Below, in pieces: positions 4,923 to 8,694 of a stretch of 11,436 nt of DNA. Under the pieces are notes generated by a model that was not told the DNA's origin, ran no database searches, and worked only from the letters and a program-made list of their open reading frames with translations. This DNA is from a virus. The translations under genes and the position numbers were made by a program. The stretch lies in UHGV virus genome UHGV-0258155. One strand, given 5' to 3'. Positions within the stretch are counted from its first letter, which is position 1; every line of letters starts with the position of its first letter.

Positions 4923-4951
4923 ATTAAACATCATGTGGATTTGTAGGTCAA
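4923..4951 (-). promoter_or_regulatory. PL-like leftward promoter: TTGACC (4951-4946) - 17 bp - TTTAAT (4928-4923)
   Basis: Near-consensus -35 and TAnnnT -10 with 17-bp spacer read on the minus strand; overlapped by TGTGGATTT operator-like repeats. Confidence 0.45.
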
Positions 4952-5010
4952 CACCTTGTGGATTTATTTTGTTGATTTAATCGTTTACTGTTGATTTTTA
5001 TGTTGATTTA
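4934..5010. promoter_or_regulatory. OL-like operator cluster: five TGTKGATTT repeats (4934, 4957, 4970, 4989, 5001)
   Basis: TGTGGATTT x2 and TGTTGATTT(A) x3 read directly. The same motif family recurs between the cI-like and cro-like genes at 7815-7880. Confidence 0.45.
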
Positions 5011-5063: not shown

Positions 5064-5261
5064 ATGGACTTGGATGAAGAAAGAGTGAACATGATGGTTC
5101 ACGCCATGGGGCGGGCGGTCATGGAGTTGTCACTGGCAGATTTACCTATGACCCAGCAAAACATCATCGACAAGCTGGAACGGTACCGGAAGGAAACGGG
5201 AAACGTGATAGGTAAGGGTGTGAACAGGGATGCAGCTGAGATAGTGCGGAAAGGACAATAA
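5064..5261 (+). CDS. Hypothetical 65-aa protein, convergent with the NTase cassette
   Basis: ORF-track ORF; ATG at 5064 with AGGAG 6 nt upstream; TAA stop at 5259-5261 abuts the hairpin at 5266-5281. Confidence 0.5.
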   Translation: MDLDEERVNMMVHAMGRAVMELSLADLPMTQQNIIDKLERYRKETGNVIGKGVNRDAAEIVRKGQ

Positions 5262-5281
5262 AAAAGCCCGCACGGGCGGGC
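5260..5281 (-). terminator. Intrinsic terminator (GCCCGC-ACGG-GCGGGC plus T6 on the minus strand); possibly bidirectional but weak for the plus strand
   Basis: Perfect 6-bp GC stem at 5266-5271/5276-5281 with the A6 run at 5260-5265, which is a U6 tract on the minus transcript. On the plus strand the hairpin is followed by AGGTAGTGTT (poor U-tract). Confidence 0.5.
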
Positions 5282-5365
5282 AGGTAGTGTTGCGATAGTT
5301 ATTGTTATCAGCTTCAGGCTGGATAGTTATCGGCAGAATGGAGGATGGCTTTATGGGTGGGCAAT

Positions 5366-5389
5366 AAAAAACCCGGCGCGGTGGCCGGG
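5366..5389 (-). terminator. Intrinsic terminator of the two-gene cassette (CCCGGC-CACCGC-GCCGGG plus T6 on the minus strand)
   Basis: Hairpin begins 7 nt after the TAA stop (5397-5399) of the 310-aa gene; 6-bp GC stem followed by a U6 tract. Confidence 0.6.
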
Positions 5390-5396
5390 TGAGATA

Positions 5397-6329
5397 TTAA
5401 AGAACCGATTTAACAAGATGGTTTTTACGGTACAGACCTATGCGATCATTGTGAATCTCAGTAGTCTCCACTAAAAGAGAAACAATCTGTCCGACCTTGT
5501 GTTTTTTTTGTATTAAATCTAGCATTTCAATCGGATAGGAAGCCTTTAAATGTTCACCACCAACATCAAGCTCCAGCTTCCCATATTTGGATAGAACGAC
5601 CAGTTCGCCTGTAACCGTTTCAGTAATGGGAGGGGATGAAATGGTTGATGTAAGTCTACTCACCAAGTACTTAATTTTATTGGAGTCAATAGTTGCCACC
5701 TTGGTGCCATTACTAAATGGACCGGTCCAACTTGCATCAAATGTTAAGTTGTGTTTATCGCATTCCTCTACGATTCTCTTAAGGCTTACAGTGGAATTGT
5801 ATCCAATTTCAGCGACGTGATTCATGAAGTTGTTGTCGTCATCGCTTAACAACAAATCGAATATGCCTTTTACAGCCTTGCTGGGTACTGTTTCTACTAA
5901 TTCTGCTATTCCTGTAGAGAAGGTGACGCCCAATTTTGTAGACCCAGGGGATAAATCAGCCAGCCTGAGGTTTAAGGAGCTTTTCACGTCGTAGGGAACT
6001 TTTTTTGAGTCCTTGCCTGAGGCAATTTTGTGTGTTGCTCTTTGTATTAGCGCTGCAAGATTTGTTGAAATAGCCCCAAGCAGCTCTAAAGGAATAGAGC
6101 CAAAGTCAACCTCAGAGCCTTTCAGCCGCAGCTCAAAAAAATCGATAAGTGGGTGCCGACTATCTTGCTTTAATTTTTCGGCCTTCAAATCGCTCAGATG
6201 AGAATCCATGGAGCGATAAAGAAGCATGTCAGCAAAGGACCTGGTTTTGTTTTGCTTCATTGCATCGACTTCTTTTTGAATGAAATCAATGCGTTTATCG
6301 CAATTTTTAAACATTGATTTATCATTCAT
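5397..6329 (-). CDS. Hypothetical 310-aa protein, second gene of the cassette; no motif recognised
   Basis: ORF-track ORF; ATG at 6329 overlaps the TGA of the upstream gene (ATGA, 6326-6329), with GAGGA upstream; AT-rich codon usage (K/N/I/S rich); followed by an intrinsic terminator. Confidence 0.7.
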   Translation of the reverse strand: MNDKSMFKNCDKRIDFIQKEVDAMKQNKTRSFADMLLYRSMDSHLSDLKAEKLKQDSRHPLIDFFELRLKGSEVDFGSIPLELLGAISTNLAALIQRATHKIASGKDSKKVPYDVKSSLNLRLADLSPGSTKLGVTFSTGIAELVETVPSKAVKGIFDLLLSDDDNNFMNHVAEIGYNSTVSLKRIVEECDKHNLTFDASWTGPFSNGTKVATIDSNKIKYLVSRLTSTISSPPITETVTGELVVLSKYGKLELDVGGEHLKASYPIEMLDLIQKKHKVGQIVSLLVETTEIHNDRIGLYRKNHLVKSVL

Positions 6330-6805
6330 AAAAAAATCCTCACTAACCCTTTCGGGTTTTCACTGCGATCAAAACCAAACCAACCGCGCCAGTAGCTACG
6401 CCAGTACTCATAATCATAGTTAGGGTCATCTAAATTCTTCATGAGTAGTAGGACATCAATTTTGTAGTTTTGTTTGATGTAGTTTCGGTCAAGCAAATTA
6501 TCGACGCGGCCCCGAAGCATGACAGGTATTGAGTTTATATTGCTATAGTCACATACCAACAAAATATCAATATCATCAGGCTCTGGTTTAGACGTGGTGT
6601 ATGAACCATCAACCCATATTTCTGTAAAACAGCCATATTGAGCAGATAATTCTCGAATAGATTCGAGTAGCTGTATAAAATTACAGTATAGCATGCCTCG
6701 CCTGGATGATGAAGGAAAGCAATCGACACAATACGATTTTAATCCAGCTTCATCCATGTCATGGAACCCTGGCTCAAACAGGGGTGGGTAATTAATTTTA
6801 TCCAT
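6326..6805 (-). CDS. 159-aa protein with a minimal nucleotidyltransferase (Pol-beta superfamily)-like motif, first gene of the cassette
   Basis: ORF-track ORF; ATG at 6805. Sequence IWVDGSYTTSKPEPDDIDILLV fits the hG[GS]-x9-13-DxD pattern, with a further candidate acidic residue in NYKIDVLLL. Motif match by eye only. Confidence 0.65.
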   Translation of the reverse strand: MDKINYPPLFEPGFHDMDEAGLKSYCVDCFPSSSRRGMLYCNFIQLLESIRELSAQYGCFTEIWVDGSYTTSKPEPDDIDILLVCDYSNINSIPVMLRGRVDNLLDRNYIKQNYKIDVLLLMKNLDDPNYDYEYWRSYWRGWFGFDRSENPKGLVRIFL

Positions 6806-6841
6806 AAAAAACCTTGCTATACATTTGTTTTTTTTATTAAA

Positions 6842-6869
6842 AATCTAACCACCGAAATGGTGACGGCAA
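6842..6869 (-). promoter_or_regulatory. Candidate promoter for the cassette: TTGCCG (6869-6864) - 16 bp - TAGATT (6847-6842)
   Basis: Read on the minus strand about 37 nt upstream of the ATG at 6805; the spacer contains a short inverted repeat CACC-N6-GGTG. Read-through from the cI promoter is an alternative. Confidence 0.3.
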
Positions 6870-6953
6870 GATGTTACATGGGGTTACAATCAGCCAATAC
6901 ACCGCATTAAATAATTTTTTCACCAGCTATGCGCCGACCAGAACACCTTGCCC

Positions 6954-7066
6954 ATCACCCAAACGTCTCATCAGGCCACCATAAGCACGATCGCAACAAC
7001 CGAGAGCAAAGTAACCACGCCTACTATCAGATATTCTCTTATCACCCAAACGTCTCTTCAGGCCAC
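6954..7066. repeat. Two 26-bp direct repeats (6954-6979 and 7041-7066, one mismatch) between the cI stop and the cassette
   Basis: atcacccaaacgtctcatcaggccac and atcacccaaacgtctcttcaggccac read directly, 87 bp apart; the second copy ends 5 nt from the cI stop codon. Confidence 0.75.
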
Positions 7067-7071
7067 TAAAA

Positions 7072-7782
7072 TTATCGGCGATATCGCAATACCGAGTACC
7101 AGAACACAAAACCGATTATCTCGACATCTGCCTCATCAGCCTCTTCATCGTCATAATCGCGATTGATGCTTCGTATTAATAGCTTCCCACCAGGCTTTCG
7201 ATAAAGCTGCTTTATGCGCTTTAAATCGCCCTGGTTAATAGCATAGAGTTCGCCGTCAATAATCCGCTTGTTGCCTGTATCGACTGCTACCGTTGCGCCG
7301 TCAGGAATAACGGGCTCCATGCTGTCACCAGAAGCGGGAAAGCAAAGCACTCCAGAACCATCACTATTTGCACCCACCCTTCTGAGCGTTGCCTTGGAGA
7401 ACCTCAGTTTAAAGCCGTTATGATCTTCGCTATGAACACGCCCATCACCACACGCAAACTCGATATCCTTCAGAAACGGTACTTCCACCTCATCGTCAGG
7501 TAGGGGGGTATTTTTGTCCCAAGCGTCGACAGTTCCCCACTCAGACTCTGGCGGGATGTTGCTCTCCAGATCCTTCTTTGGAGAACCCTCTCCATTTAAT
7601 AACCAGTCAAGAGAATAACCGAATTTTTCAGATATTTGTTGCGCCGCCTCACGACTTAACGCGTCTCTTTTTATCCAGTTGTTGACGGTCTGTGGGCTAG
7701 TCGACAAAGCCTCAGCCAAATCCCGCTGCTTCAAGCCTTCCCTTGCCAGTAAAAATTTAATTCTTTCAGAAATGCTGCTCAT
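7072..7782 (-). CDS. CI-type prophage repressor: N-terminal XRE-family HTH plus C-terminal S24 (LexA-like) self-cleaving peptidase domain
   Basis: ORF-track ORF 7072..7836. I place the start at the internal ATG 7782 (MSSISERIKFLLAREGLKQRDLAEAL...), which has GGAGCGGAGGG immediately upstream. GDSMEP (Ser nucleophile) and a downstream LKRIK Lys fit the S24 family. Confidence 0.85.
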   Translation of the reverse strand: MSSISERIKFLLAREGLKQRDLAEALSTSPQTVNNWIKRDALSREAAQQISEKFGYSLDWLLNGEGSPKKDLESNIPPESEWGTVDAWDKNTPLPDDEVEVPFLKDIEFACGDGRVHSEDHNGFKLRFSKATLRRVGANSDGSGVLCFPASGDSMEPVIPDGATVAVDTGNKRIIDGELYAINQGDLKRIKQLYRKPGGKLLIRSINRDYDDEEADEADVEIIGFVFWYSVLRYRR

Positions 7783-7899
7783 AAAACCCTCCGCTCCATG
7801 CATGGTAAACAACATGTGGATTTTTTCCATCACCATAATGTTGATTTAATCCACGCCATGAATTAACATGGTGTTGATTACACATGAGCGGAGCAAAAC
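7783..7899. promoter_or_regulatory. OR-like divergent promoter/operator region between the cI-like and cro-like genes; three TGTKGATT repeats (7815, 7839, 7872); candidate PR TTGATT (7841-7846) - 17 bp - TAACAT (7864-7869)
   Basis: Repeats read directly and shared with the OL-like cluster; the motif GGTGTTGA at 7870-7877 recurs as its reverse complement TCAACACC at 4947-4954. Confidence 0.45.
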
Positions 7900-8121
7900 A
7901 TGATCAACAAAAAATCCAACGCCAGCACCCCGCTTGAGAAAGCCATTAATGCAGTGGGCGGCTCTCAAAAGGTGCTTGCTGAAAAGGTCGGCGTAACGCC
8001 TCAGGCCATCAATATGCTTAAAAAGCGAGGTGGCAGCCTTCCAGTAACAAAAATGCGTAAATACGAAGAAGTAACCGGACTTCCTCGCGAAGTTCTATAT
8101 CCAGGTATCTTTGCCGCCTAA
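7900..8121 (+). CDS. Cro/YdaS-like small HTH regulator (73 aa)
   Basis: ORF-track ORF divergent from the repressor; GGAG 6 nt upstream of the ATG; AINAVGGSQKVLAEKVGVTPQAINMLKKRG is a typical Cro/YdaS-type helix-turn-helix. Confidence 0.7.
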   Translation: MINKKSNASTPLEKAINAVGGSQKVLAEKVGVTPQAINMLKKRGGSLPVTKMRKYEEVTGLPREVLYPGIFAA

Positions 8122-8151: not shown

Positions 8152-8694
8152 ATGCATTCACTTGCGTATCAACACAATACCGGAATACACCCGGGAGCGA
8201 TGATAAACCGCGCTCAAGCTAAAGCGACGCCGGACCACGAAAAGATCCGCGATGCGGTCCGTGCCTGGTCATCGGCGCTGGATAATCAGGACGTGGTGTC
8301 AGCGCTGATCATCAACGAATACCGGGAGCAGGGCGGGACCGCCATCAGCTTTCCGGACGACATCAGCCGGGCGCGCCAGAAGCTGTTCCGCTTTCTGGAT
8401 AACCGCTTCGACTCTGAGCAGTACCGCGAGAACGTGCGCCAGCTGACACCGGCAATCATGGCGGTCCTGCCGGTTGAGTATCGCACTCGCCTGATCGGTG
8501 CCGATTGCAAAATGTCTCGCCTGGCTGAGGCCGAGAAAGAACTCGCAGAGGCTAAACAGGCCGTGCTGCTGGACGCTCCAGAGCATCAGAAGCTGAAAGA
8601 GGTAAGCGAGGGTATAGCGTCGCTCTTCCGCCTCATGCCGGAGCAGGTAGGACCGCTGATGACGATGGTTACATCGATGCTGGGGGTTATATGA
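8152..8694 (+). CDS. Hypothetical 180-aa protein in the CII/YdaT position (phage regulatory protein-like; weakly supported)
   Basis: ORF-track ORF; AAGGGAAAG RBS upstream of the ATG at 8152; second gene of the rightward operon after cro-like. Family assignment is positional and from vague recall. Confidence 0.5.
   Translation: MHSLAYQHNTGIHPGAMINRAQAKATPDHEKIRDAVRAWSSALDNQDVVSALIINEYREQGGTAISFPDDISRARQKLFRFLDNRFDSEQYRENVRQLTPAIMAVLPVEYRTRLIGADCKMSRLAEAEKELAEAKQAVLLDAPEHQKLKEVSEGIASLFRLMPEQVGPLMTMVTSMLGVI

Follow-up and report, generated by a model that had tools for sequence, protein, structure and literature searches.

A two-gene nucleotidyltransferase cassette in the repressor-to-PL slot of a phi80-type lambdoid prophage: a candidate phage-host conflict module

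INTRODUCTION

Several described systems share some features with a pair of adjacent genes on the minus strand of UHGV virus genome UHGV-0258155, a stretch of 11,436 nucleotides to which we refer below as the window. Gene A (6326-6805, 159 aa) is predicted to encode a minimal nucleotidyltransferase (NTase) and gene B (5397-6329, 310 aa) encodes an orphan partner. The pair belongs to PDC-M63, one of 145 single- or multi-gene candidate PDC systems that were compiled from genes lying within BREX, DISARM and type I restriction-modification (RM) loci and that are called untested by their authors (Payne et al., bioRxiv 10.1101/2024.01.29.577857). In the supplement of that work, PDC-M63 is entry CAS_00189 (FAM_00167>>FAM_00523). 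Both of its component models are matched here, by two neighbouring genes that share their orientation and have the gene order of the candidate. PDC-M63 is a candidate family, and A-B is part of no validated defence system.

A reading of the window made without database searches (the sequence-only reading) had described the cassette as undescribed, its protein combination as matching no family that could be named, and the second protein as having no recognisable motif. None of these three statements can be kept. The pair is already represented in PADLOC (PDC-M63A/B), in PHROGs (9194 and 6603), in Pfam (A matches DUF6932 with 87 bits against a cutoff of 27), in one sequenced phage (mEpX1) and in 17 complete Escherichia coli genomes, and the model of B contains a C-terminal OB fold. 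The locus is thus not a new discovery. What we add is the assignment of A as a minimal MNT/ANT-like NTase with invariant catalytic residues, together with the domain layout of B, the constancy of the A-to-B arrangement, the association with the slot downstream of cI, and the boundaries of the cassette; as far as the available text of the catalogue entry goes, the slot association, the domain analysis and the boundaries lie outside it. Searches of the literature found no functional study of DUF6932, PF22014, the RefSeq accessions, mEpX1 or PhiR30. The PDC systems were left out of DefensePredictor, and some recent papers on abortive infection by prophages proved unrelated to A-B.

RELATED SYSTEMS

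With respect to gene layout, a parallel is the type VII toxin-antitoxin (TA) system HepT/MntA, in which a small NTase gene likewise precedes the gene for a larger partner. There, the NTase covalently (oligo)AMPylates a HEPN RNase that carries an Rx4-6H motif, whereas B is not a HEPN protein and has alpha/beta and OB parts rather than an all-helical fold. The NTases also differ: A falls into a separate Pfam family from MNT, the NTase of HepT/MntA, and has an additional invariant motif, RSYWRGWFGF. AbiE and MenAT are also two-gene conflict modules built around an NTase of the Pol-beta superfamily, but in those systems the NTase is the downstream gene, a toxin of ~290 aa (DUF1814), and its partner is a winged helix-turn-helix (HTH) antitoxin. 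In A-B the NTase is upstream and much smaller, without a match to AbiEii in Pfam, and Pfam scans find no HTH in B, so the pair is not of this type. Nor do A and B show the combination that defines CBASS, CD-NTase, mCpol or Hailong systems, namely a cyclase of CD-NTase size or an mCpol, together with an effector that carries a known sensor or killing domain or transmembrane segments.

With respect to position, the parallels are lambda rexAB and bstA of Salmonella phage BTP1, which are also co-oriented with the repressor gene, with no terminator between the repressor and the cargo and with a terminator before OL and PL; in all of these cases the cargo is AT-rich and exchangeable. The interval between cI and N is a hotspot of mosaic diversity and defence that includes rexAB and bstA, with cargo presumably on the repressor's promoter (PMC8585504). 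The resemblance ends with position: there is no sequence or fold relationship between A-B and RexAB or BstA, and as far as can be told the mechanisms are unrelated. PADLOC reported only PDC-M63, PDC-M32A and DrmC for the locus, and RexB is a polytopic membrane protein, whereas B has no transmembrane segment. In phage phi80, identical flanks (the imm80 cI gene, the cI-3' relics described below, the terminator hairpin and OL) enclose a single unrelated gene, 40A.

THE TWO GENES AND THEIR PRODUCTS

A and B form an obligate, translationally coupled pair. Both open reading frame (ORF) calls were confirmed, and the genes overlap by 4 nt at 6326-6329, where ATGA supplies the TGA stop codon of A and the ATG start codon of B. 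Among viral loci in IMG/VR (B 46-100% identical), A precedes B in 55 of 55, and the 4-nt overlap is scored in 54, the single exception being an artefact of ORF calling. The same arrangement is seen at much greater distances: in eight independent contexts outside E. coli, where A is only 34-43% identical, the gene directly after A is always of the B family, with profile E-values of 1e-98 to 1e-113. Two copies are damaged. On plasmid p16773_4 of Enterobacter asburiae (L011, 3026-4430), both genes of a 98%-identical cassette are fragmented; the plasmid, possibly a phage-plasmid, has phage-like neighbouring genes (GamL, Kil-like, YdaT). In E. coli KL53 (L018, 2977-4517), the IS4-family insertion sequence (IS) ISVsa5 truncates A to a 111-aa remnant and leaves B intact, and the strain is viable.

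Protein A matches the PADLOC PDC-M63A model PDLC04744 over nearly its whole length (aa 1-158 of 159, E = 1.8e-41) and belongs to phrog_9194. In an alignment of 47 homologues reaching down to 35% identity, the NTase signature G67-S68 with D78-x-D80 is invariant, and at least 90% of the sequences keep a third acidic residue, D117. A C-terminal motif, R136-S-Y-W-R-G-(W)-F-(G-F)-x-R-x-E, shows little or no variation. All 47 members match DUF6932, and ~30 of them also have weak matches to NTP_transf_2, Polbeta or the Pol-beta palm (DNA_pol_B_palm). The AlphaFold2 model is very confident, with a predicted local distance difference test score (pLDDT) of 96, and the structures closest to it are minimal NTases, aminoglycoside adenylyltransferases (ANT) and MNT antitoxins; these MNT and ANT relatives all transfer adenosine monophosphate (AMP) to hydroxyl groups. 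A profile search of the PDB with the A family returned nothing significant, and its best matches, a de novo design (E = 0.011) and Pol beta (E = 0.17), were rejected as chance. A thus has the features by which a minimal NTase of the Pol-beta superfamily is recognised (hG[GS], [DE]x[DE], a third acidic residue, the DUF6932 match and the NTase fold). Because the signature is conserved, the family match is clear, the Pol-beta matches recur and the model is confident, we place A among the MNT/ANT-like minimal NTases, as a distant relative that looks active and has its active site intact.

Protein B is more difficult to place. It matches six PDC-M63B models (best PDLC04749, E = 7.5e-45) and belongs to phrog_6603, and it has no match to any Pfam or NCBIfam family. 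A Pfam scan of 89 divergent relatives gave no family matched by more than three members, and a profile search of the PDB with the B family gave nothing significant. Several candidates were considered and rejected: PSV_trans_reg_dom for the B family (E = 0.19), DrmC in PADLOC (E = 0.004, with no stretch passing), and, as chance matches in the PDB, an LPXTG protein (E = 0.006, again with no stretch passing) and a SAVED-domain protein (E = 0.82). Searching 1.84 billion representative sequences with the B profile yields 271 clusters, and among the best 150 matches nearly all are 300-325 aa long and none is a fusion.

The AlphaFold2 model of B (pLDDT 83) has three parts: a helical hairpin (residues 10-56), an alpha/beta domain without a structural match (62-214) and a C-terminal beta-barrel or OB fold (~229-309). 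In the 89 sequences, which reach down to ~20% identity, the sole invariant residue is Ser130, within the motif G-S-T-[KR]-L; E/D63, R68, G77, P80, R122, W201 and W212 are nearly invariant. Ser130 lies in the stretch of lowest model confidence (residues 121-150, pLDDT 56-67), which suggests a loop that is possibly flexible yet conserved. A conserved HEPN Rx4-6H motif was not found, since at any alignment column at most 9 of the 89 sequences have it, and just one of the 89 has a HEPN match in Pfam. Maximum hydropathy is 1.38, and no transmembrane segment is found. By every test applied, B is non-enzymatic, with no recognisable catalytic site.

Two further observations concern B. Residues 62-146, with the GST loop included, match PDC-M32A, a further PADLOC candidate, at its N-terminus (E = 3.4e-5). 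The partner family of PDC-M32A differs from M63A; the candidate systems may have this module in common. In addition, the enterobacterial clade that includes the window has IAELV at positions 141-145 and Ala at 212, where the rest of the family has PDLFG and Trp.

THE CARGO SLOT AND ITS BOUNDARIES

The window represents the immunity region of a phi80-type E. coli prophage, which is lambdoid and mosaic, and A-B is a discrete, 1.6-kb two-gene cargo module (a 'moron') in the slot between cI and PL. It can be recognised as a discrete and exchangeable unit because sequence identity with other copies stops at well-defined points on both sides. Positions 5353-6979 are 99.6% identical to phage mEpX1, where the order is again cI-A-B ... 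N but the repressor is another one, and the cassette is 100% identical in NZ_OZ510750.1; the flanks in the window are those of phi80.

On the upstream side, the phi80-like sequence switches to mEpX1-like sequence at a short relic of the 3' end of a lambda-type cI gene, TGGCCTGAnGAGACGTTTGG, at 6959-6978 on the minus strand. Among 16 near-identical viral copies, 13 have this relic 172-174 bp ahead of A, and identity among copies typically stops there, ~175 bp upstream of A. It is part of a segment of ~58 bp that is ~94% identical to the cI 3' ends of lambda, 434 and others. Between the relic and A, a non-coding leader (6806-6958, minus strand) moves with the cassette and is identical in mEpX1; it contains a weak hairpin (6848-6867), an A/T-rich tract and the ribosome-binding site AAGG. 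Another relic of the same kind, TGGCCTGAAGAGACGTTTGG, lies at 7046-7065 on the minus strand, just past the stop codon of the imm80 cI gene. Both relics encode ...WPEETFG* and both are present in phi80. They resemble scars left by past exchanges of modules and serve as recombination boundaries.

On the downstream side, identity with mEpX1 and other copies stops 30-39 bp past the stop codon of B, at an intrinsic terminator (5361-5390, minus strand; stem 5371-5390 followed by a T-run). Its hairpin, CCGGCCACCGCGCCGGG (5371-5387), is also found after phi80 40A and after several divergent copies of B. The loci that carry it (L002, which is phi80, L009, L047-L051, L056, L068 and L073) have it behind cargo that is unrelated or only 55% identical, so the terminator is more conserved than the genes that it terminates.

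The slot is a site of cargo exchange, as phi80 and phi80-lysogenic strains such as DH5alpha have gene 40A (DUF7946) within the same flanks. The particular combination of imm80 flanks with A-B is rare, being present in only 3 of 5,426 complete E. coli genomes, and 14 further complete E. coli genomes have the same cassette beside other repressors, for a total of 17. Among the 55 viral loci, 50 have a co-oriented cI-like gene 56-409 bp upstream of the pair, and clustering of these upstream repressors gives 20 types at 70% identity and 28 at 90%. Nine of the 20 are found next to the near-identical E. coli cassette. More divergent pairs also directly follow a repressor gene, as in vB_EhrS_59 and PhiR30_1 (B ~55% identical) and also in L012, a phage from a metagenome (A 40% identical). 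The sequence comparisons show that the unit moves between many repressor types through recombination at the conserved cI-3' relic and the conserved terminator.

Outside phages, the pair is found beside type I RM genes (L005, L014), a NACHT NTPase gene (L016), a DUF4011 helicase gene (L013) and a YoeB/Phd pair (again in L005), an association that fits the origin of PDC-M63 in embedded genes. The non-phage chromosomal copies beside RM, NACHT and helicase genes have no repressor gene nearby. A separate, distant A-B copy (L006/L007, 6001-7390) is on a mobile element with small ORFs and DNA methylase, Lar-like and RadC genes, a neighbourhood that is anti-restriction-like rather than a defence island.

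In the window, the imm80-type repressor gene lies upstream on the same strand. Its ORF extends from 7072 to 7836, and the true start is probably at 7782, judging from identity with the start of phi80 cI (0 mismatches); this gives a gene at 7072-7782, and the KL53 annotation also has cI as a 711-bp gene. The product has an HTH and an S24 peptidase domain, with Pfam matches to Peptidase_S24 (4.8e-19) and Phage_CI_repr (2.5e-10). The OR operators (7804-7822, 7828-7846 and 7861-7879) and the PRM -10 element (7802-7807) match the annotated phi80 features with 0 mismatches. The downstream limit of the slot is formed by the phi80 OL operators and the PL promoter (4923-5008), with the three operators at 4923-4941, 4946-4964 and 4989-5008, all without mismatches to the phi80 sites.

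Transcription of the pair can be considered in light of these signals. The spacer between cI and A has no credible terminator: its sole hairpin, that of the leader, folds with -7.2 kcal/mol (z = -0.6), which is the level of shuffled sequence. A promoter belonging to the cassette itself was also considered and rejected, as the minus strand of the spacer has no sigma-70-like site with at least 9 of 12 consensus matches. After B, by comparison, the terminator at the cassette boundary folds with -15 kcal/mol (z = -2.9; 1 of 200 shuffled sequences folds equally well), and a second, tandem terminator that insulates PL follows at 5258-5281 (minus strand; stem 5266-5281, -12.7 kcal/mol, z = -2.0). Because the spacer has neither terminator nor promoter and the tandem terminators shield PL, readthrough from PRM or PRE into A-B is expected, and PRM is the presumed promoter of cI-A-B in the lysogen; this co-transcription is deduced from the layout.

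Much of what the sequence-only reading had said about the locus agrees with these results. It had noted the two minus-strand genes with their ATGA overlap, a strong terminator after them and no convincing one before them, a cI-type repressor gene and OL-like operators on either side, recE at the left end, and, from this order (cI, cargo, terminator, OL/PL), the slot of lambda rexAB. It had also seen the GS ... DxD motif of A, which proves to be invariant, and had correctly found no obvious HEPN or transmembrane partner. Its hand counts of GC content in three 60-bp samples were close to our recounts (31.7, 36.7 and 50.0%), and the shift is confirmed over longer distances: GC is 40.2% in A+B, 50.3% in the left flank and 52.0% in the right flank, and the lowest value among 140 flank windows of the same length is 45.8%, so that A+B is below all of them. 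Its view of the cassette as horizontally acquired cargo is borne out by the mEpX1 copy, the many repressor types and the presence of 40A instead of A-B between the imm80 flanks of phi80. The proposal of a defence role also remains plausible, given the RM, NACHT and TA neighbours and the position downstream of cI in many phages.

POSSIBLE FUNCTIONS

We consider the chances about even that A-B is cargo expressed in the lysogen with a role in phage-host conflict, in which nucleotidyl transfer by A is the chemical step. A conflict role is favoured by the embedding of PDC-M63 in BREX, DISARM and RM loci, by the RM, NACHT, helicase and TA neighbours, and by the hotspot downstream of cI. In such a scheme, A and B would be read through from the repressor promoters PRM and PRE in the lysogen, with transcription stopping at the tandem terminators before PL, and the two proteins would form a complex that acts in exclusion of, or abortive infection by, superinfecting phages.

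How the two proteins would be related in function is less certain. One form of the scheme is a switch like that of type VII TA systems. A would transfer a nucleotide to a hydroxyl group of B, most plausibly in the loop of the invariant Ser130, and this modification would gate binding by the OB-fold and coiled-coil parts of B until a cue from infection shifts the balance. This mechanism is favoured because the structural relatives of A move AMP to hydroxyls, because the gene order is that of MntA-HepT, because the only invariant residue of B is a serine, and because the loop containing it has low model confidence (and so may be flexible) while being conserved; it is the mechanism that we prefer, although its own probability is limited. 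Of similar, still limited probability is a mechanistically new abortive-infection or exclusion system, expressed by lambdoid prophages from the operon of the repressor and filling the function of RexAB. In it, the DUF6932 NTase would covalently nucleotidylylate its OB-fold partner in the serine loop, or would label a nucleic acid presented by this partner; the result would be a type VII-like switch whose effector is not HEPN.

Several points weigh against a conflict role or against parts of the mechanism. In the one published test that our searches found, deletion of PDC-M63AB from E. coli NILS69, where it is prophage-borne, left the infectivity of 10 virulent double-stranded DNA phages unchanged (10.1101/2024.12.20.629700), a set whose limited diversity is conceded by the authors of that test. 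If A-B is an exclusion system of the kind just described, this negative result would reflect a narrow range, for example one limited to temperate or lambdoid phages. The viability of KL53, with B intact and A broken, argues against B as a toxin strictly needing A, provided that the insertion has no polar effect. A HEPN motif, a transmembrane segment and any recognisable toxic domain are all absent from B; the OB domain has no net basic charge, so that binding of nucleic acid is not assured; and in the model Ser130 is at a beta-hairpin turn, where its role could be purely structural. Transcription of A-B from PRM is deduced from the layout only, and our literature searches found no experimental data on toxicity, complex formation or modification.

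The roles of the two proteins may also be the reverse, with A as the effector and B as a sensor or adaptor, an alternative of limited probability that is the main rival to the mechanism above. Through its OB fold and coiled coil, B would sense a phage cue (single-stranded DNA, RNA or protein) or present the 3' end of a nucleic acid, and A would add nucleotides to RNA or DNA, in the manner of MenT and AbiEii acting on tRNA, or to a host or phage protein, thus arresting translation or replication. Only A has a catalytic signature, which is invariant, and its conserved aromatic and basic motif, RSYWRGWFGFxRxE, could bind nucleic acid or a base; B has sensor-like parts and no catalytic constellation, and a viable KL53 is what would be expected if B is harmless by itself. 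Against this, A at 159 aa lacks the C-terminal domain of the MenT and AbiEii toxins and has no AbiEii match in Pfam, its closest structural matches come from MNT antitoxins and ANT enzymes and not from NTases that modify tRNA or RNA, and the OB domain of B is not net-basic.

Improbable, in our estimation, is a plain addiction (TA) module that stabilises prophages and islands with no direct anti-phage role. The layout of two overlapping genes, small and then large, is typical of TA systems, the pair is found on prophages, a plasmid and islands, the L005 copy adjoins another TA pair, and the defence test in the native host was negative. However, NILS69 tolerates the loss of both genes, and KL53 tolerates the IS disruption of A. 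The strict slot downstream of the repressor, with its 20 repressor types, and the RM, BREX and DISARM embedding fit defence cargo better, and a prophage would have no need for a TA pair specifically in its PRM operon.

A role that serves the phage itself, either in tuning lysis and lysogeny (as has been proposed for lambda RexA and RexB) or in anti-defence rather than in exclusion of other phages, has very little probability: the pair is directly after cI in ~50 viral loci, and the distant L006/L007 copy is among anti-restriction-like genes, but A-B is also present at chromosomal sites away from phages and repressors, beside RM, NACHT and helicase genes, and the identical imm80 control regions work with 40A in phi80, so A-B is dispensable for the switch.

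If the pair is active, A-B would add a new class of partner, an OB fold with a serine loop, to the NTase-based conflict systems, and would be a third mechanistically distinct cargo of the 'rex' slot between cI and N. The setting is experimentally easy (E. coli K-12, phage mEpX1 and phi80 immunity), and the clean boundaries and 20 repressor types show how cargo expressed in lysogens is shuffled among lambdoid phages. If the pair is inactive, it is a useful warning about candidates identified through guilt by association.

OTHER FEATURES OF THE WINDOW

The remainder of the window is consistent with a mosaic prophage. RecE (Exonuc_VIII, 7e-33) is encoded at 3-2813 on the minus strand and runs off the left end. 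Genes of the YdaS and YdaT families are in the Cro and cII positions (7900-8121 and 8152-8694, both plus strand), and the N region is unlike that of phi80 although the immunity region is identical to it. Between OL and the second terminator, convergent with the cassette, is an ORF of 65 aa (5064-5261, plus strand) with a strong Shine-Dalgarno sequence and a match to phrog_3975 (E = 3.6e-35). The phi80 sequence is the same at this place, but JX871397 has no annotation for the ORF; the KL53 annotation lists it as hypothetical.

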